Shown piece after piece: positions 4,218 through 60,427 of a DNA stretch of 64,000 bases (positions within the stretch are counted from its first letter, which is position 1; every line of letters starts with the position of its first letter). The translations under genes were made by a program, and so were the position numbers. The notes below the pieces were generated by a model. That model was not told the DNA's origin, made no database searches, and worked only from the letters and a program-made list of their open reading frames with translations. The DNA is from Candidatus Magasanikiibacteriota bacterium (GTDB lineage: Bacteria > Patescibacteriota > Patescibacteriia > Magasanikbacterales > GWA2-37-8). The stretch is from NCBI GenBank assembly GCA_016189025.1, contig JACPGS010000007.1:1162-65161 (forward strand). The letters run 5' to 3'.

Positions 4218-4227
4218 AATAAAAACT

Positions 4228-6944: not shown

Positions 6945-7139
6945 GATCTCAAAATTAATAAATAAAATATATGGCTGTGGATAATTTTTTGGCTAACTTG
7001 TGCTATTTATCGTTTATGGAATCAAAATGCAATTGACAAACCTCCTATTTTCTGATAATGTAGAAATACATAAACCTGTATTCCGAACTGTCACCGGACG
7101 GTGGCGTGGCTGGGACATCCAGCATAGGAACGTGGTTGA

Positions 7140-7166
7140 AAAGAGCCCTTCGGGGCTGTTTTTTGT
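7140..7166 (-). terminator. hairpin AGCCC-TTCG-GGGCT with flanking T/A runs, immediately after the DUF3800 gene stop
   Basis: The sequence aaaagagcccttcggggctgttttttg is a tetraloop hairpin with U-tracts on both strands. Confidence 0.5.
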
Positions 7167-8731: not shown

Positions 8732-8734
8732 ATT

Positions 8735-8924
8735 GAGACTGTAGAAGAATTGAAAAATCAGTTAGCATCGGGGCGTGGCAGACGAGTGTCTTTGGGCGCG
8801 CATCCCCCGCGTCGGCGGGGGGAGCACCCAAAGAGTGTCTGCCACGCCCGACCAGGTTAAACTTAGCAATAGCGATAGCGACCAGTTAAATAGCAGTATT
8901 TCCGGCATTCTTCTACAGTCTCAA
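8735..8924 (+). mobile_element. MITE-like repeat, family 1, copy B (forward)
   Basis: Perfect 16-bp TIR GAGACTGTAGAAGAAT / ATTCTTCTACAGTCTC. The core has apical loop TCCCCCGCGTCGGCGGGGGG. Confidence 0.85.
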
Positions 8925-8940
8925 TATTGAAAAGGTTGGC

Positions 8941-17708: not shown

Positions 17709-18881
17709 TTACTCCTCAAAATAATCAATAATTTTCCCAATCACCGTATCCAAATTATGATGCGCGCGAACAAAACCAATCGCTGCTTGATTAGGCAACT
17801 TTTCCGGCTTTAGTATACCATTCTGCCACATTTTTTCAATGGTTTGGGCCAGGGCCGCCGCGTCTCCGGCGGGGAAGGTCCACACTACTCCCGCGCGCTC
17901 GGCATCAGCATAGGCAGGGCTAGAAGTGATAACGTAGCGGCCGGCGGCGAGCGCCTCCAACACTACCTTATCCGCGCTGCCGGTGCGGCTGGGGTGGATA
18001 AGAAGATGATAACGATGATAAATACTGGGCATCTCCAGATAATCCTTCCGCTCACTGCGGAAACCTACTGCCCTGCCCCGGCTTGGTCGCTCGGTCGCGG
18101 CAGACACTCTAGGTGCTCGCGGAGCTGCGCGCCTAGAGAACTCGTCTGCGGCTCCCTCGCTCATTCGTAATTCAAAGTTATTAGTCATTTCCTCTAAATA
18201 CTTTTGATAATGCTTATCGGCTGCCGTAATTGGACTGCCGACAATGGTAAAACGTAAATGGGGAAAATCAGGCACCTGCTGGAGTTGGATTAAGGCTTGG
18301 AAGATAATTTCGTAATTCTTCACTGCACTAATCCGGCCGACCGCTAAAAGCCACAATTCATGAGGATCGGCAATCTCTTCCGGTCCCGCCGCGAATAATT
18401 CCACCGGAATCCCGTGCCCCACCACCTCCACCTTGGCGCTCGGCAAGCGAAAACTCTCCGGCGAGGCGGTGAAAATTTTGTCCGCTCGCTTTTCCGCCTG
18501 CTTCAACCACCAGTTAACTGATTTATGCACATACCAAAGGAGAATTTTTTTCTGATGTTTCCGCCACCACCAACCGCCGAGCACCACATATTCCGGATTC
18601 ATGTGAACGAAAACACCATCATAATCATTTTGATACTGCCGGATCAAGCGACGAAAACGGAAATAATAAACCAAACGCCGTAGTAGTTTAGGGAGTCTTA
18701 ACATCTTTTCCTTTCCCAGCGACAATACGGTAACATTATTCGGCAACTCAAATTCACCTTGTTCCAAACAAATCACAATCAAGCGCTCGGTGCGCGCCGA
18801 GAGGCGGCGCAGCCATTCAAGAAAAAACCCCAGCGCCGGATCGGCGCGGTCTACTTTTTGAGTAATCACCAATAAACGCAT
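17709..18881 (-). CDS. GT4 glycosyltransferase carrying an in-frame insertion of a MITE family-1 core
   Basis: GT4 C-terminal motifs are IHPSRTGSADKVVLEALAAGRYVITS. An insert of about 35 aa, AADEFSRRAAPRAPRVSAATERPSRGRAVGFRSER, is encoded by the repeat core. Confidence 0.7.
   Translation of the reverse strand: MRLLVITQKVDRADPALGFFLEWLRRLSARTERLIVICLEQGEFELPNNVTVLSLGKEKMLRLPKLLRRLVYYFRFRRLIRQYQNDYDGVFVHMNPEYVVLGGWWWRKHQKKILLWYVHKSVNWWLKQAEKRADKIFTASPESFRLPSAKVEVVGHGIPVELFAAGPEEIADPHELWLLAVGRISAVKNYEIIFQALIQLQQVPDFPHLRFTIVGSPITAADKHYQKYLEEMTNNFELRMSEGAADEFSRRAAPRAPRVSAATERPSRGRAVGFRSERKDYLEMPSIYHRYHLLIHPSRTGSADKVVLEALAAGRYVITSSPAYADAERAGVVWTFPAGDAAALAQTIEKMWQNGILKPEKLPNQAAIGFVRAHHNLDTVIGKIIDYFEE
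18084..18168 (-). repeat. MITE family-1 hairpin core inserted in-frame within a GT4 CDS (copy K)
   Basis: CTTGGTCGCTCGGTCGCGGCAGACACTCTAGGTGCTCGCGGAGCTGCGCGCCTAGAGAACTCGTCTGCGGCTCCCTCGCTCATT aligns with the intergenic copies, for example 52440..52540. The reading frame is preserved. Confidence 0.75.
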
Positions 18882-18885
18882 AAAT

Positions 18886-20118
18886 CTACCACCAACGCCC
18901 CAGGCGTTCGCTGACAGTGCCAAAATTCAACAGCACATCAGCGGCGGTGAGCGCCAAAAGAGAAACGGCAACGCCCACCGCCGGCGCGCGGCGCCACCAA
19001 CCCGGGGTTTCGCGCGCCCAGACTACCAATAGTCCGGCACCCAAAGCCAACCATGGATAAAGCGGAAAGCGATAACGCGACTGCACAACGGTAAACAATA
19101 ACGGCAAGGGGGCAGTAAGAGCCAAAGCCAGCAGATATTTCAGGAGCGGCTGGGGTGATTGGCGCCAAAATAGTGCCAGCCCGGCACCGCCGCTTAAGAA
19201 TAAAATGGCGATGCTTAACGTCGAAAAGGCAACAAAAATAAGCTGACTTAAACCGTACTGATAAAACCAAAATCCCATCGGCCGGATCAAACTCCCGTAG
19301 CGAATTAGTCGCAGGGCAGTAAGTTTAAGGAAAACTAAAGGATGAGCGGTCAAAAACGACCAAAACTCGCGGCTGGCTTCGGCCGAGAGTCCGCCATAGC
19401 CATACTGCTCGCCGTAAACACGCACCGGATTTAGTCCACCGGAGAGTTGCCCGCCGTCCGCCGCCAAAGTATTGCCGATCCATAGATTAAAAGCGCCGAT
19501 CAGAGTAGTGGGGATAAACTCATGAAACACCAGGTAATTGCGCACGGTCCAGGGGACCAGGGGAATAATCAGGCCAAGAAAAAACGGAATCAACGCCCGA
19601 TAACGGCGGGTGGCAATAAACGCTGCTAAAAATACCGGTACGAACAGCACTACCGTAGGGCGGGTGAGAATCGCCAGGGCGCTGACGACGCCAAGGACAA
19701 GAGCTGAACTAAGCCGCGCCTGACTCCGCCACCACTCTACAAAAAGATACACTACCAGCACGGCCAAGAAAAGAAACAGCGTTTCGGTTAAAAGCATTGC
19801 CGAGATTTCAATTAAATCTGGATGCAGCCCAAACAGAGCGGCGGTGATAATCCCCACCAGTTTCCCCCGCTCGCCCCACACGCGCCGCGCGATTAGATAT
19901 AAGAGGAGAGCGGAAAACGCGTGCAGCAGGGATTGGACTACCCAAACCGGCTGGTAGCGATGGCCAAACAGAGCATAAACTGCAGCCAGCCAAAATTCAT
20001 ACCCCGGCCCGGCGCGGGTAATCGCTAAATCGCGGGTAAACCCCTGGCTGCGATCTTCCCGAAAGCCATCACCGCTGACCAGATTCCAGGCAATAGAATC
20101 ATAAGCTTTGGCGTCCAC
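18886..20118 (-). CDS. GT-C fold membrane glycosyltransferase (ArnT/PMT-like, GT39/83); the N-terminal TM helix is encoded upstream, beyond an in-frame TGA
   Basis: Begins (GTG) DAKAYDSIAWNLVSGDGF, which matches the ArnT DE..Y...SGD motif. The same frame at 20230..20149 encodes MFQSWRRLINNNRLLAIIIAASFLLSLGYSF, then TGA. Confidence 0.55.
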   Translation of the reverse strand: MDAKAYDSIAWNLVSGDGFREDRSQGFTRDLAITRAGPGYEFWLAAVYALFGHRYQPVWVVQSLLHAFSALLLYLIARRVWGERGKLVGIITAALFGLHPDLIEISAMLLTETLFLFLAVLVVYLFVEWWRSQARLSSALVLGVVSALAILTRPTVVLFVPVFLAAFIATRRYRALIPFFLGLIIPLVPWTVRNYLVFHEFIPTTLIGAFNLWIGNTLAADGGQLSGGLNPVRVYGEQYGYGGLSAEASREFWSFLTAHPLVFLKLTALRLIRYGSLIRPMGFWFYQYGLSQLIFVAFSTLSIAILFLSGGAGLALFWRQSPQPLLKYLLALALTAPLPLLFTVVQSRYRFPLYPWLALGAGLLVVWARETPGWWRRAPAVGVAVSLLALTAADVLLNFGTVSERLGRWW

Positions 20119-20234: not shown

Positions 20235-20422
20235 TAGATTGCAGCAGAATAGGAACAACTAATTAGCATCAGGGCGCGGCAGACGAGTATCTTTGGGCGC
20301 GCAGCCCCGCGTAAGCGGGGGGAGCACCCAAAGAGTGTCTGCCGCGACCAACCAGGCAATCCTAGCAATAGCGATAGCGACTAGGCGGATAACGATATAG
20401 TTGGTATCCTTCTCCAGTTTCA
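20235..20422 (+). mobile_element. MITE-like repeat, family 1, copy D (forward; degenerate TIRs)
   Basis: TAGATTGCAGCAGAAT ... core with loop GCCCCGCGTAAGCGGGGGG ... TAGCAATAGCGATAGCGACTAGGCGG ... ATCCTTCTCCAGTTTC. Confidence 0.8.
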
Positions 20423-21415
20423 TTAAATCGCACGTAATGCTTTAACCCACTGCTCTTGATTATTGATCGGCAAAATTTGTACTGATTCCCCGGGCAGCAC
20501 CTCATAATTCGCCACGCCCACGTCATTCATAATCACGCGAGTACCCGCGGCCATCGCCTCCATTACGGCTAGACCATAACCTTCACTTAAACTGGGGAGC
20601 AGCAGGGCGTCAACTGTTTTAAGATAGCTCCACGGGTCAGCGGTCCACCCTTCCAGCTTGACATTATTCTCCAGCCGCAATTTTTTAATCAAACGGCGTA
20701 TCCGCGCTTCCGCGCGCCCGGCCCCGGCCAAAAGCAACAGCGCCCGCGGCCGCTCGCGTACCACGGCGGCGAATGTTTTAACCAGCCAAGGCACGTTCTT
20801 TACCGGATCTAAGCGCCCTAGCCACAAAAAAATAGGGCCAAACCCGGGATATTTTTCGCGCGCGGAAAATCGCGGTGCCCAAGCGCGAATCGCTGCCGTA
20901 TCCACCGCAATCGGCTGCACCGTAATTTTATCTGCCGCCACTCCCAAGGAGAGTACGCCGCGCTTTACCCGCTCCCCCACTGCCCGCACCCAAGTAGCGC
21001 GGCGCAAGACGAACTTGCCCAAGTGCCAGCGCAACTGCTCCCCTAGGCTGCCGTGGCGATAATAAGCCGACAGATAAAAATCGCCATGCGCCTGCACCGT
21101 AAGCGCGGCGCCGGTTTCGTATTTCAAAAACCAACCTATCAGCCCGGTTCCAAACGGATCCTGGGCGGTAATCGCGGGAATCTGCCGCTCCTGAATCAGC
21201 CGCTTGCCGCTGGCAAGAAGCCGAAAAAATTGCTGCGGTTTGTTGCCGCCGGTGGATTGCACGTGCACCGTGGGGCTTAAATCCAAGGCCGCCCGCTCCG
21301 GCGCGGGAATAATAATAAATAATTCATCCGTCTCTCCATATTGCCGCATCCGCCCGGCGGCGCGCGAGTGCGGATCCAAAATAGAGCGATCCAGGCTAAT
21401 CATTAGTTGACGCAT
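20423..21415 (-). CDS. GT4 glycosyltransferase
   Basis: FLWLGRLDPVKN, LLLAGAG and LLLPSLSEGYGLAVMEAMAAGTRVI are typical of GT4. Confidence 0.7.
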   Translation of the reverse strand: MRQLMISLDRSILDPHSRAAGRMRQYGETDELFIIIPAPERAALDLSPTVHVQSTGGNKPQQFFRLLASGKRLIQERQIPAITAQDPFGTGLIGWFLKYETGAALTVQAHGDFYLSAYYRHGSLGEQLRWHLGKFVLRRATWVRAVGERVKRGVLSLGVAADKITVQPIAVDTAAIRAWAPRFSAREKYPGFGPIFLWLGRLDPVKNVPWLVKTFAAVVRERPRALLLLAGAGRAEARIRRLIKKLRLENNVKLEGWTADPWSYLKTVDALLLPSLSEGYGLAVMEAMAAGTRVIMNDVGVANYEVLPGESVQILPINNQEQWVKALRAI

Positions 21416-21482
21416 AGTTTATCCACACAAATACACTTGACAAATTTCTGCTTTCATTTATAATAATAATATTCCTACGAAA

Positions 21483-21527
21483 AAAACCCTTATGCGGTTC
21501 TGTCCGCATCGGGGGTTTTTTCTTTTT
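21483..21527 (-). terminator. bidirectional rho-independent terminator hairpin ATGCGG-N6-CCGCAT flanked by A7 / T6
   Basis: aaaaaaacccttatgcggttctgtccgcatcgggggttttttc. It overlaps the 3' end of the NYN gene. Confidence 0.55.
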
Positions 21528-22017
21528 GGGCCTGTAATACGGTTTTTTGATCGTTAATATAAGCAATGGCTACCCCTGTTCTTTTAAGCAAAATTGAGCA
21601 TCGCCGTGTTTCATAGGGCGAAAGTATAACCTGAATTTTTTGTTTTTCCCCTAAGAAAGCGACCAGGCTGGCATAATCGCCGTCGCTGGAAACCAAAATT
21701 GCCTTATTAAAGGTATTTTCATAGGCATCCCTCATTACTCGCACTACAAGATCCGCGTCGCAATTGCCTTTTATCTTGCCGTTGTCGTCGTAGGTTACTT
21801 CTTTAAAAACTAGGGTAAACCCTATTTCTTGCAGATAGGTATACAAATTTTTATATTTCGGAACCAACCCCAAAAATAAATAGGCCTGTTCTACCCTATA
21901 TTTTTCGCGAAGCCAAATGCGTAATCTGCCGTAGTCTAGCTGCCAACCCAGTTGCTTGGCGCCGTTGTGCAAATTCGCGCCGTCAATGTAGGCAAAATTT
22001 CTATCGGTTAATTTCAT
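21490..22017 (-). CDS. NYN/LabA-like (PIN-fold) domain protein
   Basis: AYIDGANLH, GNCDADLVVRVMRD and LVSSDGDYASLV are NYN-domain acidic motifs. It sits in a block with lower GC. Confidence 0.6.
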   Translation of the reverse strand: MKLTDRNFAYIDGANLHNGAKQLGWQLDYGRLRIWLREKYRVEQAYLFLGLVPKYKNLYTYLQEIGFTLVFKEVTYDDNGKIKGNCDADLVVRVMRDAYENTFNKAILVSSDGDYASLVAFLGEKQKIQVILSPYETRRCSILLKRTGVAIAYINDQKTVLQAQKEKTPDADRTA

Positions 22018-22039
22018 AATTAAAATCAAGCTGGCGTCA

Positions 22040-23224
22040 TCAACTGGCGCAAACCTGCTGCAGGGCCTGCCTAGTCAGGGCAATCATGTTATCACCTGAT
22101 AAACCCTTATTGGGTAATAATTGCTGTCTATTTTTAATAATTATCTCTCTTGTTTTGTTATCAGTAGTAAGCTTTAGTATTCCTGAAATCATTACCTCTT
22201 TTTCGTCCGGCTTAAAAAGCAAGCCGTCAGGGAATTGATAGCGACGTTGTAACAGTTCAACATGCGCGACAATGTTGCTCGCAAACACCGGACAACCCAC
22301 TAACCACGATTCTAATATCACATGCGGTAAACCTTCATAACGACTATTAAGAACCAGCAGACCGGATTTGGCCATTTCGCGCAACGCTTGATCATGCGAC
22401 AAAGGGCCGAGCATCTGTACGGCGGATTCTAATTGTAACTGTTGAATTAAAGATTGAATCCGTCCACGTTCTGGTCCATCTCCAATAATGACCAACTGAT
22501 AACTACTGTCCCGACGAAGTAGTTCTGGCATTATTTCTACCATGGTCATTACTCCTTTCCACGGCATGAGCCGACCAATAATAATTATCCTCTTTAGATT
22601 TTTTGGCGAGGAGGCTAATTCAGTTAGAAGTTCGGTCGGTAAAAATACCTCATTATATATAACCCGCACTCGCTCCGGATTAACCCCCCACCCGATCACC
22701 AATTCTTCCAGATATTCACTTGGTACAATGACCAAACTAGCATGTTTAGTGACCGCTATTTCTTTATTCCGTAAAGATCCAATTTTACCACGATACTGAC
22801 GTTTTTGGAAGTCGTCAATCCCCTCTTTTACTAGCCCCAGCACCTGCCCCTGCTCCCAGGCATAATCGCCCACCACCTTCACTGCCAGCTTTTTCTTTCT
22901 CGGACGTAGCAGGCAAGCCAACCGCGCTGGCCAGCCAGCGTTAACAGGCCCCATTGCATACACAATATCTGTCCGCCAAATGAGTACCCACAAGAGCAAA
23001 AAGTATTCACCATAGCGAAACAGCATATTTTTAAAATGAACCCGATATAGTTTAACTTTCGGATCAAGCACGCCCTTATCTGATTGCTTATTCAAGGATA
23101 CAATTTTTACCTTTATTCCTTGCTTTACCAATTCATTCGCCAGCGTAACGCAGTACGTCGCCGGCCCACCGGATTCGGGCGGAAAAATATCAGCGGCAAT
23201 AAGTAACCTCATATAATAGATCAA
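22040..23224 (-). CDS. GT4 glycosyltransferase
   Basis: IIIGRLMPWKG, LVIIGDGPE and LVLNSRYEGLPHVILESWLVGCPVFASN. Confidence 0.7.
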   Translation of the reverse strand: MIYYMRLLIAADIFPPESGGPATYCVTLANELVKQGIKVKIVSLNKQSDKGVLDPKVKLYRVHFKNMLFRYGEYFLLLWVLIWRTDIVYAMGPVNAGWPARLACLLRPRKKKLAVKVVGDYAWEQGQVLGLVKEGIDDFQKRQYRGKIGSLRNKEIAVTKHASLVIVPSEYLEELVIGWGVNPERVRVIYNEVFLPTELLTELASSPKNLKRIIIIGRLMPWKGVMTMVEIMPELLRRDSSYQLVIIGDGPERGRIQSLIQQLQLESAVQMLGPLSHDQALREMAKSGLLVLNSRYEGLPHVILESWLVGCPVFASNIVAHVELLQRRYQFPDGLLFKPDEKEVMISGILKLTTDNKTREIIIKNRQQLLPNKGLSGDNMIALTRQALQQVCAS

Positions 23225-23922
23225 TCATCTATGCTCTTCCAAAATAGCTTGTCCAGCACCACTCCGGTGTTAGCATCAATATATAACTCTTCGCCGTTAG
23301 CCTCATCGCGAGAATCCGATAAGATATTGGAAACCCCCCAGATATAAGTATTATATCGAACATGCCAATTAAACCACGCCTCCCGCCCTTTAATTCCCCC
23401 GCTCAATCCAGCGGCTTCGGCAATGGCGAGCGCCTGCTGTTTGTCAATGGGAAATTTGCACTCTCTAGGTTCCCTCACACAATCCGGCAAACCAAATACG
23501 TCGCGTTCAACAATCAATTGTCCGCTACTATCGAGCGCAAATTCAATAAGCTGATCTTTGACAAAAGGTCGGTCGGGAATAGTAAAAGAATAAACCATTA
23601 AATAATAGGGCTTTTGTAAAAACTGCAAACAAAAAGAGGGATTTTTGATACAGTGTTCATTCGCCGGATAAAGCCTGCTTTTCTGCGTACTAAAAGTGAC
23701 GTACTGGCGAAAAAATTTTTCATCAATTTTGGAAATAATAAAACGATCGGCTTTCGCTATAATAGCTGCCGGCATTGGTTCATGCTTCTCTTCGCGGAAG
23801 CTCCTAGTACTGAATAATGGTGGGCGTAAAATATCGTACCAATACAAACCGAATACGAACCCAATAACCAAAACAATAAATAGTACCACTGCCCTTAACA
23901 ATAACTTAATGCGCAGAGTCAT
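23221..23922 (-). CDS. hypothetical membrane-anchored protein
   Basis: 233 aa with a single N-terminal TM (LLLRAVVLFIVLVIGFVFGLYW). No recognisable family. Low-GC context. Confidence 0.35.
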   Translation of the reverse strand: MTLRIKLLLRAVVLFIVLVIGFVFGLYWYDILRPPLFSTRSFREEKHEPMPAAIIAKADRFIISKIDEKFFRQYVTFSTQKSRLYPANEHCIKNPSFCLQFLQKPYYLMVYSFTIPDRPFVKDQLIEFALDSSGQLIVERDVFGLPDCVREPRECKFPIDKQQALAIAEAAGLSGGIKGREAWFNWHVRYNTYIWGVSNILSDSRDEANGEELYIDANTGVVLDKLFWKSIDD

Positions 23923-25115
23923 AATTGGGAAAAAATTACTTGCATATCTCTGGCGATGCCTTGCCAGATATACTTCTCGGCGATGAGCTTTCGACTATTC
24001 TCCCGCAACCGCTCGGCTAATAATTTATCGTCGAAAATCTTTTTAATCTTCTCCGCAATGTCTTTAGGGTCGCCGACTTGGCAGAATAAACCGGTCTCTC
24101 CGTCTTGCAAAAAATCCGGAATACCGCCGACTGGCGTCGCCACCACCGGCAGACCAGCGGCCATTGCTTCCAAAAAAGCGCTGCCCAGGCCCTCGGAACG
24201 GCTGGGCCGACAGAATACATCGCTGTCCCACAAATACTTAGGCAATTCATCGTGCGATAAACTTCCTAAAAAATGCACTCGCTCGGCTAAATGCAATTGC
24301 TTGGCCAAACTCTTCAATTTGCCTTCTAGGGGACCGCTGCCAGCGATCAATAAATGAACGGATGGCGGTAAAAACTGCATGGCTTTTATGAGATCGGCTA
24401 CCCCATTCTTTTTTACCAAACGCGAGGCGGTAATTACTAAAGAAACATCATTCCGAGCAAAGGGAGCGCTAGCGACCGTAGTCGAGGAATCTCTTAATTT
24501 AGCGAGAAGGATTCCTCCACTCCCCCGACTTAGTCGGGGTCGGTCGGAATGACAGTTGAACCGCTCAATATCTACACCGTTGGGAACCACCTCCACCGGA
24601 CATTTCGCGCCGAGTTGGCGCGCCCAGGCCGCCAAATAATTGCTAATCGCCTGAATCCGATCGGCCCGCTGAAAAATTTGTTTGAAATACGGCCAGCACC
24701 ACCAGACATGTTTATAAATCTGCCACCGACTATCGCCCTCTTGCAGGGTCAGCAAAAAGGGAACGGCCGGATTTCTTTTTTTATAACGCAAAGCAGCGAA
24801 TCCCCCGTAGCTTGCCATAATCGCCCACACCAAATCAAACCGGCCTAACTTCCTGGCTTCCTGCCAACCAACTTTAACGAGCCGGTACTTATCCCAGTGA
24901 TTGTCCTCTCCGATGCGGTGCACCTCAATATTTCCGATACGTTCAATCTCCGGCAATTTTGCATCTAACCGCGCGGTGAGCATCACAAACTCAAACTCGC
25001 CGCCGAGTCGATCGGTAATTTCTTTTACGGCAAACTCGGCGCCGCCCACCAGTGGCAAATAGGCAGTGGAAAAAATCAGAACCCTTTTAGCGGGCAAAGG
25101 CGACATAGTTACCAC
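23919..25115 (-). CDS. GT4 glycosyltransferase carrying an in-frame family-2 repeat insertion
   Basis: Has PLVGGAEFAV and LLIAGSGPLEGKLKSLAK...FCRPSRSEGLGSAFLEAMAAGLPVVATPVGG. The extra segment HSDRPRLSRGSGGILLAKLRDSSTTVASAP is encoded by the repeat at 24485..24560. Confidence 0.7.
   Translation of the reverse strand: MVTMSPLPAKRVLIFSTAYLPLVGGAEFAVKEITDRLGGEFEFVMLTARLDAKLPEIERIGNIEVHRIGEDNHWDKYRLVKVGWQEARKLGRFDLVWAIMASYGGFAALRYKKRNPAVPFLLTLQEGDSRWQIYKHVWWCWPYFKQIFQRADRIQAISNYLAAWARQLGAKCPVEVVPNGVDIERFNCHSDRPRLSRGSGGILLAKLRDSSTTVASAPFARNDVSLVITASRLVKKNGVADLIKAMQFLPPSVHLLIAGSGPLEGKLKSLAKQLHLAERVHFLGSLSHDELPKYLWDSDVFCRPSRSEGLGSAFLEAMAAGLPVVATPVGGIPDFLQDGETGLFCQVGDPKDIAEKIKKIFDDKLLAERLRENSRKLIAEKYIWQGIARDMQVIFSQL
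24485..24560 (-). repeat. family-2 palindromic repeat (core CCCCGACTAAGTCGGGG) inserted in-frame in a GT4 CDS
   Basis: Its reverse complement, ...CCGACCGACCCCGACTAAGTCGGGGGAG..., matches the intergenic copies at 40678..40785 and 56508..56571. Confidence 0.65.
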
Positions 25116-26800
25116 GCGACCGCGCCGGAAGAATCGGCCGTAACGCGATAAACCTTAAACGCCACCTGGCCGTCGGAGCGGCTGATTAACGCCGGCTGAA
25201 AACCAGCGGCCACCAGACGCTGTTCGGTCTGGTCCGCGGCAGGAGTGCGAAATTTTGGCAAATCCAGCGGCGCGTACTCGGTGGCTTTAATAAAATAAAA
25301 CGCTTCCAGATTAAGCTGCGACAATAACTCTGCTTCATTCAAAGAAAACGCCGGGAAATTATTATAAAATCGCCGGCGCTCAAACAGCCAGACGCGCGAG
25401 AACCAGTTAATGTTCCCGTCAAACAAAATAACACGGCTATGGGCAGCGCGCTCCTGCCGCTCGGCGGCGCTGGCTACCAATAAATAACGCCGGAGACTGT
25501 TCTTTTTGATTTTTAAGCTCTGTTGGGGATCAAAATAGGTTAAACTTCGGTCCATCACAGCAATCTGATCTAAATACCGATCCAACTGCGCTACTCCAAA
25601 GTTAATTGGCTGCTCCGATTCTCGCCACCAACCCGGGGCGCCAAACCCTTTGGGCAATAAGTTAGAATTGGCTACAAATACCATCAAATAGACCGACAAA
25701 ATTGCTACTCCTCCTAACCACCAAGAGCGGCGCCACTTCTTTTGGCAATACTGCCGCCCTAAATCAATTAAAAACACTGCAACTACCGGCGCTAAAAATA
25801 TGCCGTATAAATTGCGTGCGCCAATCAAAGTGTCTTCAATCACCAGCCAAACCACTGCTAAACCGGTCAGCAGCAATCCCGGCCGGCGCCGCGCCAGCGT
25901 AAAACTAGCGGCCAATAAAACCAATAAGGCATAGGGAAACGACAAACCATAAATTGCCGCCCGGCCGTTTACCAATATACCCTCCCACCACTCGGGGGCA
26001 ATACCCCCCAGTTTCCAAGGGCTGGACTGCCCCAACAGACGCACCAACTGTAAGCTGAAATGGCCGGTCGCCTGATACATCATCAAATTGTAAATTATTA
26101 CTGGCGCCAACAACAGCAGCGCTAACCCTGCCGCATAATAAAGCTGGCGCCGACGAAAAAGCTCGCGCCGTCTTAACGCTAAATAAACAAAAAAGGCGGG
26201 AATAATAAAAAGAGCGGTAAACTTAGTTTCCAACATTAATCCGACCGCCAGGCCTAATTTCCACCATTCCCGCGCCGGATTATCCAAAAAACGTAAGAAA
26301 TAATACCAGGCCAGAGAGATAAAAAATAACACACCGGCCTCTAAAAAAGTGGTTCTCCCCTGCCAGATAAAATGGGAATTGAGGGCCAACAATAAAGCGG
26401 CGAGGAGCGCGGTGGGGCGATCAAAACAGCGCTTGACCCAGGCATAAGTAAGGACAATCGTCCCCAGTGACATTAACCCAAAGGGTAATTTGGCGAGCCA
26501 CAAGCTAGGGTGCCAGCGCAAAAAAGCATGCTGAATTAAAAACAAAAGCAGCGGGTGATCGTGCCAGGATAAATTAGCCCACCAGGGGAAGCGACTAAAC
26601 CACTGCAGCGGCGTGGACTGCGACTCGTCGTCGCCGAACATGTGATCAACTAATCCGATAGAGCGCGTGCTGTAAATGGCGTCGTCGCCGATCATATCTA
26701 CGGTCGTAATCCGGAATAACAAAAAAAACGCGGCTAGCGCCAAAATGAGGAGCAACCGCTTGTCGTACCGTTCGATCATTCTGGTTAGGGGGCTAATCAC
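25109..26800 (-). CDS. GT-C fold membrane glycosyltransferase (PMT/ArnT-like, GT39/83)
   Basis: 563 aa and multi-TM. The first loop has GDDAIYSTRSIG (D-D/E motif). Confidence 0.55.
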   Translation of the reverse strand: MISPLTRMIERYDKRLLLILALAAFFLLFRITTVDMIGDDAIYSTRSIGLVDHMFGDDESQSTPLQWFSRFPWWANLSWHDHPLLLFLIQHAFLRWHPSLWLAKLPFGLMSLGTIVLTYAWVKRCFDRPTALLAALLLALNSHFIWQGRTTFLEAGVLFFISLAWYYFLRFLDNPAREWWKLGLAVGLMLETKFTALFIIPAFFVYLALRRRELFRRRQLYYAAGLALLLLAPVIIYNLMMYQATGHFSLQLVRLLGQSSPWKLGGIAPEWWEGILVNGRAAIYGLSFPYALLVLLAASFTLARRRPGLLLTGLAVVWLVIEDTLIGARNLYGIFLAPVVAVFLIDLGRQYCQKKWRRSWWLGGVAILSVYLMVFVANSNLLPKGFGAPGWWRESEQPINFGVAQLDRYLDQIAVMDRSLTYFDPQQSLKIKKNSLRRYLLVASAAERQERAAHSRVILFDGNINWFSRVWLFERRRFYNNFPAFSLNEAELLSQLNLEAFYFIKATEYAPLDLPKFRTPAADQTEQRLVAAGFQPALISRSDGQVAFKVYRVTADSSGAVAW

Positions 26801-26811
26801 AGACTAAAAAA

Positions 26812-27753
26812 TCACTTACCTAAACGTTGACGGAAGTCGGCAATGGTTTTCTGCAAACCCTTCTCTAACCCGACGGTCGGCTGCCAACCGAGCAGGGTTT
26901 TTGCTTTAGTGATGTCGGGGCAGCGGCGGCGGGGGTCGTCCTGGGGTAAGGGCAAGTAAGTAATAATACTAGAGGAACCAGTGAGAGCAATAATTTTTTG
27001 GGCGAGTTCGGTAACGGTTTTCTCTTCCGGGTTACCTACATTAATCGGGCCGGTAATCTCCGGCGGGGAATTCATCATTTTAATTAGTCCCGCCACCATA
27101 TCTTCCACATAACAAAAACTCCGCGTTTGCGAACCGCTGCCGTAAATAGTAATCGGCTTGTCCTGTAAGCCCTGGAAAATAAAATTAGAAATCACCCGGC
27201 CATCATTAAAGGCCATCCGCGGGCCATAAGTATTGAAAATCCGCACGATCTTTATTCCGGTGCCGTGCGTCCGATGATAATCAAAACAAATGCTTTCGGC
27301 ATAACGCTTGCCCTCGTCATAACACGCGCGCGGGCCAAAAGGATTAACATTGCCGTGATATTCCTCGGTTTGCGGATGCACTTCCGGATCGCCATACACT
27401 TCGGAGGTAGAGGCCTGCAAAAAGCGCGCCTGATGCCGGCGGGCGATTCCCAACATATTCATTACCCCGATGGTACTAGTCTTGATAGTATGAACCGGAT
27501 TAAGTTGATAATGAGGGGGAGAGGCGGGACAAGCCAGGTTATAAATCTGGTCTACGGATTTATCAAGATAGAGCGGTTCTACAATATCGTGCTTAATAAA
27601 AATAAACTTCGGGTTGGCCATTAACGAAACGATATTTTGTTCAGCGCCGGTAAACAAATTGTCAACGCAAACAACTTCATCGCCGTGGACGATGAGCTGA
27701 TCGCAAAGATGAGACCCGATAAATCCGGCGCCGCCGGTTACTAAAATCCGCAT
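26812..27753 (-). CDS. uxs: UDP-glucuronate decarboxylase (UDP-xylose synthase)
   Basis: [45 protein letters not shown]. Confidence 0.85.
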
Positions 27754-27814
27754 AGTTGCTTAAAAACAATAGCTATAGTATGCTATACCAAGCCAAAAAT
27801 GTCAACGCCAGATT

Positions 27815-31842: not shown

Positions 31843-34086
31843 CTAATCTAACTGATACTCCTTAATAAACTTTTCCACCTCGCCATGGAGCGGCGGGAAC
31901 AGTTTCCGGATCGTTTCCGCCAGCTCGCGCGCCTTTATTTTGTCGCCCTGGACCGCGTAAGCAGCCGCCAGGCGCACGTACCACAGGGGATTCTCCGGCT
32001 CGGCGTTCAATAATTTCTGATAGCCTGCTATTACTCTACCATATTCTTTCGCGGTCGCCAATAGATCCAGCCAATGCAGGGTCTGATCGCGATTCAGCAG
32101 GTAGCCGAGGGCCGGCGCGCGATCAATCTCGGCCAGGGCGCGGACGCGATCGCCAGCCGCTTCGTAACCTAATCCTAAAAAGAAGTGGCTGATGCCGATT
32201 GAGGGATCAATATCCACCGCCTCTTGCAAAATCTCAATTCCTTGACGGAAACTCCCCGCCAATAAATAACGGCGCGCTGCTAAAAATAAAATATCCTGCT
32301 TGCGCGGTGAAAGAGCGCGCGCTGCTTCCAGGTACTTTCCCGCCTCTTCCCAGTAGCGCGGGTCAACCTGTTCGCCGAGCACCAGATAAATCTGCCCGGC
32401 CCAGATGGGGTAGCCGGCGGCCCCGGGGTGGCGGCGCGCGGCAAAGCCCAAGGCTTCGGCCAACCGGAGTGCGGTAGCAACCGTAGAGGAACTATTAAGG
32501 CGCACACCGGCCTGATCCAGGCGGACAAACTGCTCGGCGACAAATATCAATCCTTCATCCTGTTTGGGGGTGGTTAAAACCAAGGCGGAGGCCGCGGCTG
32601 AAGTCCACTGATTAGCGTCCGGCGCCGTGGCGGCCCGCTGCATCGCGCGTGCCGCGCGCCAGGGAACCAAATGCCATGCCCCTAACGAGTAAACCAGACC
32701 GGCCAAAAGTATTACGCTAGCCAAACCAACAATCGCGCCGGGCAATTTTCTCCCGTTGGCTAAACTGGCTGCCGGCTGCCGAGCCACGATACCGGATTGA
32801 CTGCCGAGCCAGGCCAAAATAAACCAAAACAACAGCAGCGAATTGCTGGTTTCAAATAAAAATAATAAGGAGACAAAATATCCCGCCAGCGTGACCGATA
32901 AAATAACGATTGCCCCGCGCAAAACCGCCTCCTGCTTTACTTTTCTAATCGCCCGCGCCAGCGCACTGCCATAAAGCGCCAGGTAAGCAAGTAAACCAGC
33001 TGCTCCGCTCCCCACCGCCACCTCCAGGGGAAAATTGTGCGGCTTATCCCAGACCGTTTCGGCAAATCCATACTGCAAAAAACGGGGACGGTAATATTTT
33101 AAAAACACCGGCTCAAAATTCCCCCAGCCCCAGCCCAAAAGAGGCCGCTCGCGCACTCCTTCTAGCGCGCTCCCCCAGGCGAGTAAGCGCGTTTCGCCCG
33201 TACCAGTAGTAAAACTGCGCCAATCAAACAAACGCGGTAAGAGAGAGAAACGCGCCGTGACAGTCGGTACGCCAGCCAGCCAAGCACCGCCTACCAGAAG
33301 CAAGATTATCGCCGCGAGCGCGGCAAGGCACCAACGCCGCGCCATAGGCAAAACCATCGCCCCGGCAATAAGCCCCATGATTAGCGCGATCAAAAAGCCG
33401 AGCAGTGGACCGCGACTGCCGCTGAAAAACAAGGCACTGATAATTAAAAATGCTCCGGCTACCACCAGGCTGCGCTTGGTTACTGACCAATTTCGCCAAT
33501 CGGCTGCCAAAGCTGCCAAGGCAATGCCTAGAGCCAACAACAGATACTCGGCGGCAAACGCCCGATTGCCGATAATACCCCCACCGGCAATACTTTGCCA
33601 GCTGGCAGGCAGGCGCGACTGTCCAAACATCGTTAAGGCTACCAGCGCGGCGACTATGGTCATCAGGACCAAAGCCCGCCCACGTTCCGGCTCGCGCGAG
33701 AGCAGGTATCGCCGCGCCAAGGCGTACCAGGCGCCAAAATGCCACCAGGTGAATACTCCGCTCGCGCGCGACAGATTGCCCCAAAAACTAAAAACCGGGT
33801 CACCCCCTAAAAGAGCGGTGGCCGTAATCACTGTCAAAAATGCCGCCACTGCCCAGTCCAGCCCGGTTAACCGCCTGACTATCCACCAAATGTCATTCCC
33901 GCGCCAGCGGGAATCCAGTCGCAGCCACCGCCAGCAATGCAAAAATAACGCTACCTCTACCACCGCTTGGAATAAAATCGTCTTGCCCAAATGCCAGCCA
34001 AAAAGCAACCCGGGCGTAATCGCCAGAGGGAGTAACAGCGTAAGGTAAAGCAGCCAAACAATAAAGCGGGAAATACGATCAGACAT
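31843..34086 (-). CDS. O-antigen ligase/polymerase-like (Wzy_C) membrane protein with C-terminal TPR domain (paralog of 28962..31034)
   Basis: FFSGSRGPLLGFLIALIMG motif. TPR-like tail (YLLNRDQTLHWLDLLATAKEYGRVIAGYQKLLNAEPENPLWYVRLAAAYAVQGD). Confidence 0.5.
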   Translation of the reverse strand: MSDRISRFIVWLLYLTLLLPLAITPGLLFGWHLGKTILFQAVVEVALFLHCWRWLRLDSRWRGNDIWWIVRRLTGLDWAVAAFLTVITATALLGGDPVFSFWGNLSRASGVFTWWHFGAWYALARRYLLSREPERGRALVLMTIVAALVALTMFGQSRLPASWQSIAGGGIIGNRAFAAEYLLLALGIALAALAADWRNWSVTKRSLVVAGAFLIISALFFSGSRGPLLGFLIALIMGLIAGAMVLPMARRWCLAALAAIILLLVGGAWLAGVPTVTARFSLLPRLFDWRSFTTGTGETRLLAWGSALEGVRERPLLGWGWGNFEPVFLKYYRPRFLQYGFAETVWDKPHNFPLEVAVGSGAAGLLAYLALYGSALARAIRKVKQEAVLRGAIVILSVTLAGYFVSLLFLFETSNSLLLFWFILAWLGSQSGIVARQPAASLANGRKLPGAIVGLASVILLAGLVYSLGAWHLVPWRAARAMQRAATAPDANQWTSAAASALVLTTPKQDEGLIFVAEQFVRLDQAGVRLNSSSTVATALRLAEALGFAARRHPGAAGYPIWAGQIYLVLGEQVDPRYWEEAGKYLEAARALSPRKQDILFLAARRYLLAGSFRQGIEILQEAVDIDPSIGISHFFLGLGYEAAGDRVRALAEIDRAPALGYLLNRDQTLHWLDLLATAKEYGRVIAGYQKLLNAEPENPLWYVRLAAAYAVQGDKIKARELAETIRKLFPPLHGEVEKFIKEYQLD

Positions 34087-34145
34087 AACAGCAGAGTAAG
34101 CCCGGTGTAAGCAATAATGAGCGAGGGAAATGAGCGAGGGAGTGG

Positions 34146-34225
34146 TAGACGGGTTCCCTACGCGCGCACCCCCGCGTAGGCGGGGGGAGCACGGAGGGTG
34201 TCTACCACGACCGAGCGACCAGGTT
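34146..34225 (+). repeat. divergent MITE family-1 core (copy J, core only)
   Basis: GTGGTAGACGGGTTCCCTACGCGCGCACCCCCGCGTAGGCGGGGGGAGCACGGAGGGTGTCTACCACGACCGAGCGACCAGG. The hairpin architecture is retained with a GCGT-type apical loop. Confidence 0.6.
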
Positions 34226-34272
34226 AGGGCATTTGGTATTCAGGGGTGTTACGATTGTACCACCGGCGCGGC

Positions 34273-39804: not shown

Positions 39805-39982
39805 AAATTGTTGCAGAAGAATCCAAACTATTTCACCTGATTCGCCTGGTCGCTGTCGCTATTGCTGGGACTGCCTGATTGGTCGCGGCAGACACTCTTT
39901 GGGTGCTCCCCCGATTTAATCGGGGTGCGCGCCCAAAGACACTCGTCTGCCGCTCCCTGATGCTAACTGGTTTCTTCAAATT
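39805..39982 (-). mobile_element. MITE-like repeat, family 1, copy E (reverse)
   Basis: TTGCAGAAGAAT...CCTGGTCGCTGTCGCTATTGCT...GGTCGCGGCAGACACTCTTTGGGTGCTCCCCCGATTTAATCGGGGTGCGCGCCCAAAGACACTCGTCTGCCGC... Confidence 0.85.
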
Positions 39983-39990
39983 ATCTCAAA

Positions 39991-40542
39991 CTAACCTAAT
40001 TTCTGCCGCAACCGTTTCAGCGCCCGGTGAATCATTACTCGCACCGTCAGGCCGCGCTTGCCGGTGATCTCGGCAATTTCCTCAATGCTTAATTCATCAA
40101 TATAGCGCAAGGTTATTACTTCCTGATATTCCTGCTTCAGCTGTTTCAGAGCATTGACGATAACGCCGGCGTCCAACGAAGTATGAAGCTCGGCATACCA
40201 CCGTCCCCCATCGCCCGGTTCAATCGCTTCACGCCGCGCTGCTAATGCTTCAATCTTTTGGCTGCCGGCCCGCTTCCGGTACCAGTCAATAATAGAGTTT
40301 CGCGCAATGCGATAGAGCAGGCCGCTGAAACTTTTGATGGCCTTGCCTTCCTGGAAGTACTGCCAGGCTTTCAAAAATACCTCCGAAGCAATATCTTCGG
40401 CCTCTTCGCGACTGCTCACCTTAAAAAAAACAAAGCGATAAATTTGCTGGATGTATTTATCGTAAAGAGCGGCGTAGGCTTCCGGATCCGCGGCGGTTTT
40501 TACCTGATACAATAGTTCCTGGTCTGAAGGCGTTTTAGACAT
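39991..40542 (-). CDS. ECF-type RNA polymerase sigma factor (sigma-70 regions 2 and 4)
   Basis: YDKYIQQIYRFVFFKV, DIASEVFLKAW, DELSIEEIAEITGKRGLTVRVMIHRALKRLR. Confidence 0.8.
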   Translation of the reverse strand: MSKTPSDQELLYQVKTAADPEAYAALYDKYIQQIYRFVFFKVSSREEAEDIASEVFLKAWQYFQEGKAIKSFSGLLYRIARNSIIDWYRKRAGSQKIEALAARREAIEPGDGGRWYAELHTSLDAGVIVNALKQLKQEYQEVITLRYIDELSIEEIAEITGKRGLTVRVMIHRALKRLRQKLG

Positions 40543-40677
40543 TATAGAAGACGGTTAAAAACAGAAAATGTTACACCCCCTGGTTGCAAAGGATAGCCAC
40601 TATCATAGCAAAATCAGCTGAAAATAGCAACCTTTAAACTACCGACTAGGCTGATTAGCAGGCTTAATAATAGGCCA

Positions 40678-40785
40678 AAATATCAATTTTCTTAAGCGGT
40701 CATCGCGGTCGCCTAAGGCGACCGACCGACCCCGACTAAGTCGGGGGAGGGGGTTTGACCGCGAAAAAATTGATATGTTTTAGCC
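40678..40785 (+). repeat. family-2 repeat, full copy with inverted termini AATATCAATTTT / AAAATTGATATG
   Basis: Nested hairpins GTCGCCTAAGGCGAC and CCCCGACTAAGTCGGGGG. Shares the GACCGC...AATTGATATRTTTTAGCC tail with 56508..56571. Confidence 0.65.
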
Positions 40786-40826
40786 TTATATATAGAGAGC
40801 GTTTTAATTAGCACTATTGATTCACT

Positions 40827-41006
40827 AAAATTTGTATAGACTAGTCTATACAAATTTTATCATTTTTGCCTAAAATTAGCAAAAACTCCTTAAACATTAC
40901 TTTTATATATTTGTATACAACAGTGTATACAAATTATTGATTAAAAATAACCCCTTGACAGCTTAGCCAATTTTTGCTAAAATTTGTATACACTAATGTA
41001 TACAAA
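40827..41006 (+). promoter_or_regulatory. three operator-like palindromes TTTGTATA(C/G)A-N4-T(G/C)TATACAAA plus a consensus sigma-70 promoter (TTGACA 40955..40960, N17, TAAAAT 40978..40983)
   Basis: Palindromes at 40827..40858 (perfect, 32 bp), 40909..40934 and 40981..41006. The last overlaps the -10/+1 region of the downstream HTH gene. Confidence 0.6.
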
Positions 41007-41009
41007 CTT

Positions 41010-41345: not shown

Positions 41346-41400
41346 TCCTCCTCTCACCGGGAGGATTTTAGTTTGACCGCAATACTTAGCCTGCTATAAT

Positions 41401-41590
41401 GAAACTGCAGAAGAATATCAACTATTTCGTTATCTACCTGGTCGCTATCGCTATTGCTGGTAACTGCCTGGTTGGTCGCGGCAGACACTCTTTGGGTGCT
41501 CCTCCCGACTAAAGTCGGGACTGCGCGCCCAAAGATACTCGTCTGCCGCTCCCTAATGCTAACTGGTATTTTTAATTCTTCTACAGCCTC
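41401..41590 (-). mobile_element. MITE-like repeat, family 1, copy F (reverse)
   Basis: AAACTGCAGAAGAAT ... core with apical loop CCCGACTAAAGTCGGGA ... ATTCTTCTACAGCCTC. Confidence 0.85.
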
Positions 41591-41604
41591 ATAATACAAA
41601 AAGT

Positions 41605-56508: not shown

Positions 56509-56571
56509 AAATCTATTCGCCCCGACTAAGTCGGAACGCGACGACCGCTAGCCAATTGATATATTTTAGCC
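56508..56571 (+). repeat. family-2 repeat, short copy
   Basis: GCCCCGACTAAGTCGGAACGCGACGACCGCTAGCCAATTGATATATTTTAGCC. Confidence 0.6.
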
Positions 56572-59320: not shown

Positions 59321-59508
59321 GGCTGTAGAAAAATTAAAAAACCAGTTAGCATCAGGGCGCGGCAGACGAGTGTCTTTGGGCGCGCAGTCCCGACTTTAGT
59401 CGGGAGGAGCACCCAAAGAGTGTCTGCCGCGACCAACCAAGTGAGTTTTAGCAATAGCGACAGCGACCAGGCGGATAATGATAAAGTGAGTGTGCTTCTA
59501 CAGTTTCA
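59321..59508 (+). mobile_element. MITE-like repeat, family 1, copy I (forward)
   Basis: GGCTGTAGAAAAAT ... core with loop TCCCGACTTTAGTCGGGA ... TTAGCAATAGCGACAGCGACCAGGCGG ... GCTTCTACAGTTTC. Confidence 0.85.
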
Positions 59509-60267: not shown

Positions 60268-60427
60268 GCTGGGTGATGGCGTATTTTAAGCTGTTTTCCC
60301 TACGGTTGTCAATGCTATTCCTTTAGACCCGTTGAAAAACTATTTTTGAGACACAGTTGTTATCCTTGCGAAACCTGTCTTCTGGATTCCCGCGTACGCG
60401 GGAATGACAGGTGAATTTTTCAACGTT

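Follow-up and report, generated by a model that had tools for sequence, protein, structure and literature searches.

The window analyzed here, by which we mean the entire 64-kb stretch of DNA, contains at 23919..25115 on the reverse strand an intact ORF for a glycosyltransferase of the GT4 class, 398 aa in length and recognized by Pfam (Glycos_transf_1, 1e-43; Glyco_transf_4, 1e-16). Judging from the MetK sequence, both the source organism and a syntenic relative (GCA_964533715.1) are Magasanikbacteria-like: the MetK of the source organism matches a protein of a Candidatus Magasanikbacteria MAG (P0121) at 100% identity and that of the relative at 82%. The GT4 gene carries a palindromic DNA segment at the position of its inter-domain linker, between the blocks VVPNGVD and SRLVKKNGV. 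An initial annotation had already placed a repeat at this site inside the coding sequence, and both Pfam and alignment agree with that placement; its proposed extent, 76 nt or ∼25 residues, proved too small. The termini ATCATTCCGAG at 24447 and TCGGAATGAC at 24553 define a segment of 107 to 108 nt or 36 codons, which we refer to as element A (24447..24554, minus strand, the gene-sense strand). It encodes GT4 residues C188 to D223, CHSDRPRLSRGSGGILLAKLRDSSTTVASAPFARND, with no stop codon and the frame kept.

Element A is an inverted doublet of two REP-like units that end in GTCAT. The unit itself is an imperfect palindrome, ATTCC...GGAAT, starting with GTCAT, and in element A the GTCAT ends point outward. 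Inverted termini GTCATTCCGA / TCGGAATGA flank the element, inside which the two units are arranged around an 18-nt spacer. The left unit (24510..24553, minus strand, 44 nt) reads GTCATTCCGAC-(CGACCCCGACTAAGTCGGGG)-GAGTGGAGGAATC, that is, unit frame plus apical hairpin cassette. The spacer (24492..24509, minus strand), CTTCTCGCTAAATTAAGA as read from the sequence, is partly self-complementary. The right unit (24447..24491, minus strand, 45 nt) reads GATTCCTCGACT-(ACGGTCGCTAGCGCTCCCTTTG)-CTCGGAATGAT, such that GTCATTCCGAC and CTCGGAATGAT form the inverted pair of termini; its final base is degenerate, T for C, when aligned with GATTCCTCGACTTCGCTCGGAATGAC of sequence L010. In both units, the apical loop holds additional small palindromes as cassettes. 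One of these is the small GC-hairpin CCCCGACTAAGTCGGGG, whose core (24523..24539, minus strand), CCCCGAC-TAA-GTCGGGG, has a 7-bp stem and a 3-nt loop. As RNA, the segment folds better than shuffled sequences (z of about -2.9 to -3.6).

Three copies of a single repeat family with one shared core had initially been proposed for the window, the other two lying around 40678 and 56508. An exact 28-mer, CCGACCGACCCCGACTAAGTCGGGGGAG, does occur at 24520-24547 (minus strand) in element A and at 40722-40749 (plus strand) in the second copy, here called element B, and at no other site (none in 100 shuffles), but the third stretch (56508-56571) has only the 15-nt CCCCGACTAAGTCGG. The single family likewise dissolves on inspection: A is a GTCAT inverted doublet, B is an element of 113 nt bounded by terminal inverted repeats (TIRs), and the third copy, element C, is truncated. 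By sequence, then, B together with its truncated second copy C makes up a TIR-bounded family separate from A, and what A, B, and C have in common is a hairpin cassette of 15 to 28 nt, without a common element body.

Element B (40673..40785, plus strand) is predicted to adopt a Y-shaped fold (-58 kcal/mol, z = -6.5) with two apical hairpins, GGTCGCC-TAA-GGCGACC at 40707-40723 and CCCCGAC-TAA-GTCGGGG at 40730-40746. Its own inverted termini, noted before, turn out to be longer than given: they are imperfect, span 18 to 20 nt, and read GGCCAAAATATCAATTTT (40673-40690) and AAAATTGATATGTTTTAGCC (40766-40785). B sits 131 nt upstream of an ECF sigma gene (39991-40542, minus strand), in AT-rich flanks that are ambiguous as to a target-site duplication. 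At the corresponding intergenic site of the relative, no B-like sequence was found; beyond the 50 nt next to the sigma gene, this region is too diverged for an empty site to be placed to the base. Element C (56520..56571, plus strand), located between ORFs 55978-56508 and 56556-57455, corresponds to a B-type element of which only the right half is present. It consists of the degenerate hairpin CCCCGACTAAGTCGG (56520-56534), the arm CGCGACGACCGCT, which is the reverse complement of the left arm of B with one mismatch, and the terminus AATTGATATATTTTAGCC; this arm and the 18-nt right terminus are shared with B only. On its left, C had seemed by eye to end in a degenerate B terminus (about 12/17), but blastn gave no support for this reading, and it was dropped.

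The cassette is not restricted to A and B. Searching the 17-nt core with up to two mismatches returned 8 matches against 0.01 expected, and the same or variant cassettes are seen at the apex of B/C and of another repeat, family 1, which is about 190 nt long and present in about ten copies in the window. The two family-1 variants, for which no strand is assigned, are TCCCGAC-TAAA-GTCGGGA at 41503..41520 (host repeat about 41397-41595) and TCCCGAC-TTTA-GTCGGGA at 59388..59405 (host repeat about 59318-59510), in keeping with the earlier observation that the hairpin forms the apical loop of some family-1 copies. Family 1 shows cassette-like variation at its apex within otherwise conserved arms. 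The suggestion that the repeat families recombine or nest is a fair reading of this recurrence at the apices of other repeats, except that it had merged two families into one.

GTCAT units are also found on their own. In addition to the one doublet (A), the window has two singlets of 25 nt: GTCATTCCCGCGCCAGCGGGAATCC (33892..33916, plus strand), which lies inside a Wzy_C-like ORF (31843-34086, minus strand) and is read as LDSRWRGND, and GTCATTCCCGCGTACGCGGGAATCC (60384..60408, minus strand), located 20 nt downstream of the stop codon of ORF 60428-61438 (minus strand). In the syntenic relative, an intergenic doublet (L029 3818-3933) has a left-unit frame (3819-3860), TGTCATTCCGAC...GAGTGGAGGAATCC, identical to that of A, with a different loop content of 17 nt. 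The left unit of A also matches L010 5664-5741 (reverse strand) at 40/44 positions, as counted from the sequences. As a whole, element A aligns with doublets of L029, L010, L013, L018, and L006. L010 alone has four doublets in 6.6 kb, one of which is a 61-nt basic form, and more are found in L003/L006/L020, L013, L018, and L021; spacers of these other doublets measure 7 to 24 nt, and basic units of 25 to 26 nt are present in L010, L013, and L039. All units start with GTCAT, usually TGTCAT, and most copies have a T to their left and an A to their right; a longer direct repeat is not seen, and no target-site duplication is evident around the GTCAT elements. The A-type architecture extends to other small-genome metagenome contigs and to phage-like contigs. 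L037, which is rich in GTCAT units, encodes phage tail proteins and not a transposase. Near-identical units occur across genomes of 33 to 62% GC and phage-like contigs, and doublets that are nearly identical were found at GC contents of 35% and 54%.

Scanning for the 19-mer ACCCCGACTAAGTCGGGGG gave 9 hits in genome contigs and 15 in metagenome contigs, with the source genome in neither set; as these hits were picked by the hairpin itself, their number is not a measure of cassette frequency among GTCAT units. Many other matches to the 19-mer are plain isolated or terminator-like hairpins that are unrelated.

The architecture of element A is, by sequence comparison, that of the REP doublets (REPINs) that are mobilized by RAYT tyrosine (HUH) transposases (PMC3116915, PMC3733652). 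Like REPs, the A-type units are short imperfect palindromes of 25 to 26 nt whose 5′ end bears a brief conserved tag that stays unpaired, and they are present in multiple copies (two singlets and the two units of A), some behind genes and others within them; some REP families are nested inside other palindromes (PMC3733652). As with REPINs, there are singlets as well as inverted doublets in which the tags face outward and the spacers are short and variable, as seen in A, L010, L013, L018, L006, and L029, and a doublet can be folded either into a single long hairpin or into two small hairpins. Unlike in REPs, however, the tag is GTCA(T), with no GTAG or CGTC tag in any unit; no RAYT/TIRYT gene was found among the window ORFs scanned; the GTCAT units bear exchangeable GC-hairpin cassettes in their loops; and they are near-identical across the wide GC range and the phage-like contigs mentioned above.

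Rickettsia palindromic elements (RPEs) offer a second comparison. These elements of ∼100 to 150 bp are found in frame in unrelated protein genes of a reduced genome, and the fold of the host protein is believed to tolerate the added peptide (PMC10969869, PMC3733652). Element A resembles them in being inserted in frame at a structurally tolerant site, the GT4 hinge; further in-frame copies are those in L010, L003, L039, and the Wzy_C-like ORF. In contrast to RPEs, A has an unrelated sequence, is composed of two REP-like units, and has no conserved element-encoded peptide, its copies being read in different frames; the hosts also differ by phylum, Patescibacteria versus Alphaproteobacteria. For B and family 1, the closest parallel is to bacterial MITEs such as Nezha, Correia/NEMIS, ERIC, and BOX (PMC10969869). 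Both are small, non-coding, TIR-bounded, strongly folding, intergenic, and missing from the orthologous site of the relative (for B, in the diverged region described above). TIRs around a non-coding element of <300 bp are thus found in B, and A has GTCATTCCGA / TCGGAATGA. Different from MITEs, no clear target-site duplication and no parent insertion sequence with matching TIRs were found for B or family 1 in the 64-kb window.

The cassette itself is reminiscent of the small dispersed repeats (SDRs) of Nostoc punctiforme, which Elhai et al. (2008) reportedly described as hairpin modules of ∼20 nt, nested in other repeats and possibly mobile. A cassette of 17 to 21 nt at the apex of three repeat families resembles these modules, but the cyanobacterial sequences are unrelated, and SDR copies run into the hundreds as opposed to a handful of putatively mobile cassettes here. 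A cyanobacterial origin of the DNA, as well as an identity of the elements with cyanobacterial SDRs or Nezha, was ruled out by the MetK identity given above.

Searches of existing collections returned little of relevance. With Rfam, no meaningful match was obtained around A, B, or family 1 at E values up to 10; at the gathering threshold, the window yields tRNAs and a DUF3800-IX RNA only, all elsewhere. When we searched for intrinsic terminators, no T-run followed the hairpin in A, B, or C, and A is inside a CDS. Viral sequences gave no match to the family-1 core or the singlet pattern and, for the B terminus, six chance matches only, all inside one phage gene family. At the protein level, the 36-residue insert retrieved only two spurious tandem-repeat proteins from 1.84 billion representatives, and a word-indexed search using the hairpin translated in four frames found nothing at E values up to 10; both results are uninformative. 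Full-text literature searches for the unit sequences hit unrelated primers only; they turned up no report of MITEs or REPs from Patescibacteria or Magasanikbacteria, and GTCAT repeats are absent from the supplements of PMC3733652. The GTCAT repeat family is apparently undescribed, though of a known, REP/REPIN/MITE-like kind.

Taken together, element A is probably a non-autonomous palindromic repeat, of which the segment flagged initially would be the hairpin-bearing half. No transposase (Pfam/NCBIfam) was detected among the about 50 window ORFs of at least 150 aa that were scanned, so we can only infer its mobilization: A would have arrived by transposition in trans and landed in, or replaced, the hinge that joins the two Rossmann domains of the GT4 protein and tolerates changes in length. 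The 28-mer common to A and B would then go back to a small hairpin cassette that moved, or was copied, together with a few flanking bases between palindromic repeats. Possible routes for such an exchange include nested insertion into single-stranded loop apices, gene conversion, and template switching.

Conversely, the mobile unit might be the GC hairpin of 17 to 21 nt itself, a very small dispersed repeat that enters single-stranded loop apices independently, making A, B, C, and family 1 mere landing pads. We regard this as possible but somewhat improbable. It is suggested by L010 2296-2388, where a 21-nt cassette, ACCCCGACGTAAAGTCGGGGG, stands with clean borders between GAGCG and AATCGAGG in an otherwise standard unit, and by the identical unit frames with different loop contents of A and the L029 doublet. 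Moreover, the stem CCCGAC/GTCGGG recurs in three repeat families with the loops TAA, TAAA, and GTAAA, and there is precedent for REPs nested within other palindromes (PMC3733652). On the other hand, the 28-nt identity of A and B runs past the hairpin into CCGAC and GAG, which are parts of the GTCAT unit frame, and thus fits the copying of a larger piece. Copies of the cassette are also few (3 plus 2 variants in the 64-kb window), unrelated genomes contain its 17- and 19-mers as ordinary isolated hairpins not much more often than chance would predict, and the family-1 picture could equally be obtained by compensatory drift of a selected apical stem.

Alternatively, the similarity of A and B may have come about without transposition, through gene conversion or template switching during replication of hairpin DNA, a process that would exchange apical sequences and also make new perfect mini-palindromes. 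This explanation, too, we can put forward only tentatively. It would account for apical segments that are much more variable than the arms yet always palindromic, for the slippage-prone tandem CGAC repeats in the shared tract (CGAC x2-3, then CCCGAC), and for the absence of target-site duplications, but it leaves unexplained both how A arrived in the GT4 hinge and why near-identical doublets exist in genomes as different in GC content as those cited above. Nor is it mutually exclusive with the preferred reading of A as a mobilized non-autonomous repeat.

Returning to this preferred reading, the GT4 gene itself supports the view, raised by the initial annotation, that repeat DNA was inserted into it in frame and in a lineage-specific manner. 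In the syntenic relative, the gene order epimerase / PMT_2 / GT4 is kept, and the positional ortholog (P0016) has an ordinary linker of 24 residues without the element. The stretch C188 to D223 is missing from this ortholog and from all 14 aligned homologs. Removing A, however, would leave almost no linker in the protein (FN|VSL), and A therefore did not simply enter a normal linker; one has to assume that the ancestral linker was already short or that about 20 native codons were lost. In an AlphaFold2 model of the protein (mean pLDDT, 83.8), values <50 are confined to residues 191 to 221. Since the frame is kept and no stop codon is present, translation of A most likely yields a disordered surface loop of 36 residues, which would leave the enzyme intact.

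We considered whether the segment could instead be a native, selected part of the gene, either a specialized linker peptide or an mRNA structure regulating translation or stability, its likeness to intergenic repeats being secondary. The open frame in an otherwise well-conserved gene, the folding of the RNA above shuffles, and the potential of REPs to act at the RNA level (PMC3733652) would be compatible with such a role. We nevertheless consider it very improbable, given a segment that is missing from the ortholog and all aligned homologs, has termini and unit frames matching intergenic repeats of other genomes, is predicted to be disordered, and matches no Rfam family. That the repeat was wrongly joined into the GT4 gene of this metagenome-assembled genome is hardly credible: assemblies do break at repeats (L027 ends at 20367 within a family-1 copy and L026 starts at 33917 beside a singlet unit), but the reading frame is preserved, and an independent Logan assembly from another sequencing run (L027, SRR12113422, 7432 nt, GT4 product called at 395 aa) spans the gene and is 100% identical across window positions 20367-27798, element A included.

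The same hinge has accommodated other palindromes. One GT4 homolog (L039/P0013) has a GTCAT singlet plus CCTGCCTGCCGGCAGGCAGG at this position, and another (L025/P0001) has a GC-rich multi-hairpin of 115 nt. In three lineages, different palindromes have struck this hinge in separate events, which makes it a natural example of selfish palindromic DNA creating or replacing protein linkers and a parallel to what has been proposed for Rickettsia RPEs. In-frame elements are also seen in other genes, including those of a 729-aa membrane protein in L010 and a Mur-ligase-like protein in L003, in addition to the Wzy_C-like ORF of the window.

Genomes of Patescibacteria (CPR) are roughly 1 Mb in size and usually regarded as streamlined. 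Nonetheless, 64 kb of such a genome contain about ten copies of family 1, a second TIR element, and GTCAT REP-like units, and at least three repeat pieces of the window are inside intact genes. More speculatively, the GTCAT units and their exchangeable cassettes of 17 to 21 nt might constitute an undescribed cross-phylum mobile-DNA system, in which one single-stranded-DNA transposase moves both doublets and mini-hairpins among Patescibacteria, higher-GC bacteria, and their phages. The mini-hairpins would then be the smallest mobile units, targeting the loop apices of other palindromes, and protein linkers of ultra-small genomes would be rebuilt recurrently in frame. We consider this broad reading doubtful as a whole; should the exchange of cassettes prove enzymatic, it would point to a very small class of mobile DNA. 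On a practical note, inserts of this type can mislead the calling of genes in CPR MAGs, the assignment of orthologs, and assembly, as illustrated here by contigs that break at repeats.

Element A is a genuine repeat-derived in-frame insertion in the gene at 23919-25115(-), a GT4, to which it contributes 36 codons (C188-D223), immediately after ...VVPNGVDIERFN and before VSLVITASRLVKKNGV. Its architecture was revealed by scanning public metagenomes and genomes with the 19-mer hairpin, followed by a pattern scan: several contigs hold the hairpin within a larger element ending in GTCAT...ATGAC, the others being unrelated isolated hairpins. The basic GTCAT doublet is ∼61 nt long and consists of two inverted ∼26-nt units (e.g., GTCATTCCGAGCGAAGTCGAGGAATC) flanking a short A/T-rich spacer, each unit being an imperfect palindrome by itself (ATTCC...GGAAT). 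Contig L010, from another small genome, holds four doublets in 6.6 kb, and 3/8 of its units have an additional GC-rich mini-hairpin in their loop. This mini-hairpin recalls the small dispersed repeats reported in Nostoc. An ORF of the same contig (486-1622) starts inside a GTCAT doublet.

Judged by its sequence, A (24447-24553, with a T at 24554) has exactly this doublet structure, reading GTCATTCCGAC-(CGACCCCGACTAAGTCGGGG)-GAGTGGAGGAATC, spacer CTTCTCGCTAAATTAAGA, and GATTCCTCGACT-(ACGGTCGCTAGCGCTCCCTTTG)-CTCGGAATGAT on the gene-sense strand. The doublet termini replace the 76-nt hairpin segment (24485-24560) and ∼25 extra residues of the initial annotation. The left unit is identical to L010 5664-5741 at 40/44 positions (counted manually from the printed sequences), despite the GC contrast between that contig (35%) and the window (54%). 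Singlet units of the form GTCATTCCCGCG-NNN-CGCGGGAATCC lie at 33892-33916 (+), within the Wzy_C-like ORF 31843-34086(-), and at 60384-60408 (-), 20 nt past the stop codon of ORF 60428-61438. The exact 26-nt unit is also present in five IMG/VR contigs (56 to 62% GC), one of which, L037, encodes phage tail proteins.

As to the source lineage, MetK (43651-44796) is 100% identical to a Candidatus Magasanikbacteria MAG protein, and its close homologs are all from Magasanikbacteria or other Patescibacteria. A relative, GCA_964533715.1 (MetK 82% identical, 44% GC), is syntenic across most of the window; 54% versus 44% GC is a large compositional shift among related Magasanikbacteria. Its positional GT4 ortholog, P0016, sits in the same epimerase/PMT_2/GT4 order and has an ordinary 24-residue linker in which A is absent. 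The hinge likewise differs in 14/14 aligned GT4 homologs, none of which contains A's sequence, bearing out the expectation that an ortholog alignment would mark the insertion as lineage-specific. Since the GT4 minus A retains almost no linker, it must either descend from a short-hinged ancestor (the hinge of P0060, for example, is ∼10 residues long) or have lost ∼20 native codons. An AlphaFold2 model (mean pLDDT, 83.8) falls below 50 only at residues 191-221, within the insert. Across the gene, 100% identity is found with L027, an independent Logan assembly of a different run, in which a 395-aa product is called; the insertion is thus no artefact of assembly, and the gene has an intact ORF. 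The protein was not among the protein-database search results (best match, 68%), yet it was called by Logan in L027.

The inter-domain hinge seems to be a repeated landing or tolerance site, since unrelated palindromes occupy it in the closest GT4 homologs. Homolog P0013 (L039, 565-650) has a GTCAT singlet there, GTCATTCCCGCGCAGGCGGGAATCC (peptide SFPRRRESG), together with CCTGCCTGCCGGCAGGCAGG, and the closest homolog at 68%, P0001 (L025, 2885-3005), a 115-nt GC-rich multi-hairpin. In-frame copies are present in further proteins as well. The 729-aa membrane protein of L010 (1624-3813) has two in-frame segments derived from repeats, VIPSDPDVKSGESRDLKRRFLDPPAGGLRNDK and VVIPANPPATQRDKALRAGAGIQ, and the Mur-ligase-like protein of L003 contains a GTCAT element. 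In the window's Wzy_C-like ORF, the singlet at 33892-33916 gives LDSRWRGND, within a loop as long as the relative's.

The core motif CCCCGACTAAGTCGGGG is real and non-random, with 8 matches in the window at ≤2 mismatches versus 0.01 expected. Of the three copies proposed to form one palindromic family around it, A and B carry the 28-mer CCGACCGACCCCGACTAAGTCGGGGGAG exactly, at 24520-24547(-) and 40722-40749(+), its only two sites, and it is absent from every shuffle. The third (56508-56571) lacks the 28-mer, sharing with the hairpin just CCCCGACTAAGTCGG at 56520-56534. Instead, B (40673-40785) and C, a right half at 56520-56571, make up one small TIR-bounded family, because they have in common a right terminus of 18 nt, AATTGATATRTTTTAGCC (2 matches versus 0.09 expected), and an arm, CGCGACGACCGCT in C being the reverse complement of the B left arm AGCGGTCATCGCG with one mismatch. 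The termini of B are imperfect inverted repeats of 18 to 20 nt, and its predicted fold is Y-shaped with two apical hairpins (-58 kcal/mol, z = -6.5). In the relative, a hairpin at L029 3691-3712, GCGGTTGCC-TAC-GGCGACCGC, close to where a 758-aa ORF has its 5′ end, is similar to the first apical hairpin of B (GGTCGCC-TAA-GGCGACC).

The strongest support for the hairpin as an exchangeable cassette in a conserved unit frame comes from the relative's intergenic GTCAT doublet (L029 3818-3933), whose left-unit frame TGTCATTCCGAC...GAGTGGAGGAATCC is identical to A's, with a different 17-nt content in the loop where A has the CCCCGAC hairpin. Ten aligned copies of the ∼190-nt family 1 have highly conserved arms and an apical segment that varies in a cassette-like manner: CCCCGA-TTAAA-TCGGGG in three, CCCCGC-GTAA/GTAG/GTCG-GCGGGG in three, TCCCGAC-TTTA-GTCGGGA in two, and no apical cassette in one. 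The CCCGAC/GTCGGG stem thus recurs at the apex of three repeat types (GTCAT doublet, B/C and family 1), which supports the proposed nesting or recombination of families in modified form, though not as one family with three copies. Candidate routes for movement of the cassette are insertion, gene conversion and template switching. The A/B identity extends into the GTCAT frame by a few bases (CCGAC...GAG) and takes in tandem CGAC repeats, a pattern that fits the copying of a somewhat larger piece at least as well as bare-hairpin insertion.

The closest known architecture is that of REP doublets (REPINs), in which imperfect-palindrome units bear a tag, occur as singlets and as inverted doublets, lie in part inside genes, and can be nested in other palindromes (PMC3116915; PMC3733652). 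One defining feature fails, however, because the tag here is GTCA(T), not GTAG or CGTC. No transposase was found among the scanned window ORFs, the RAYT search covering the window alone. In its effect, an in-frame insertion in a reduced genome, A is like the Rickettsia palindromic elements (PMC10969869), but it is unrelated to them in sequence and lineage. Rfam has no matching family, and the searchable literature mentions neither these sequences nor REP/MITE elements in Patescibacteria. A belongs to a REP/REPIN/MITE-like family of known kind that appears to be undescribed; its mobilization mechanism, copy number in this genome and translation are inferred.

Family 1, with about 10 copies in 64 kb, is very dense for a lineage with ∼1-Mb genomes. 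Copies lie at about 4030-4221, 8734-8926, 20236-20425, 39836-39990, 41397-41595, 49968-50043 (just the two ends retained), 52403-52560 and 59318-59510, with variants at 34129-34231 and at 18074-18165, the latter within the GT4-like ORF 17709-18923, whose Pfam domains leave a ∼120-residue gap (174-294) at that variant. Independent Logan contigs end at repeats, L027 inside a family-1 copy (window 20367) and L026 starting directly beside the GTCAT singlet (window 33917), which suggests that the repeats break assemblies.

Upstream of the ECF sigma gene, the relative has neither B nor a family-1 copy. Three copies of one ∼33-nt operator-like palindrome (TTTGTATAC-N-GTATACAAA), located at 40825-41009 in this upstream region, are, in contrast to the neighbouring repeats, conserved in the relative (L030 13455-13603), where they are adjoined by a small 112-aa ORF. 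A lone variant hairpin, CCCGAC-GGAA-GTCGGG (63645-63660), is enclosed by a longer stem (AGAGCC...GGCTCT), past the start of the sigma-70 gene 62536-63369(-), and has no Rfam match at the gathering threshold. Finally, an Rfam DUF3800-IX RNA at 7073-7141 (+) (54 bits, above gathering) directly adjoins a DUF3800 protein gene, ORF 7166-7792 (-), in the middle of a polysaccharide gene cluster.
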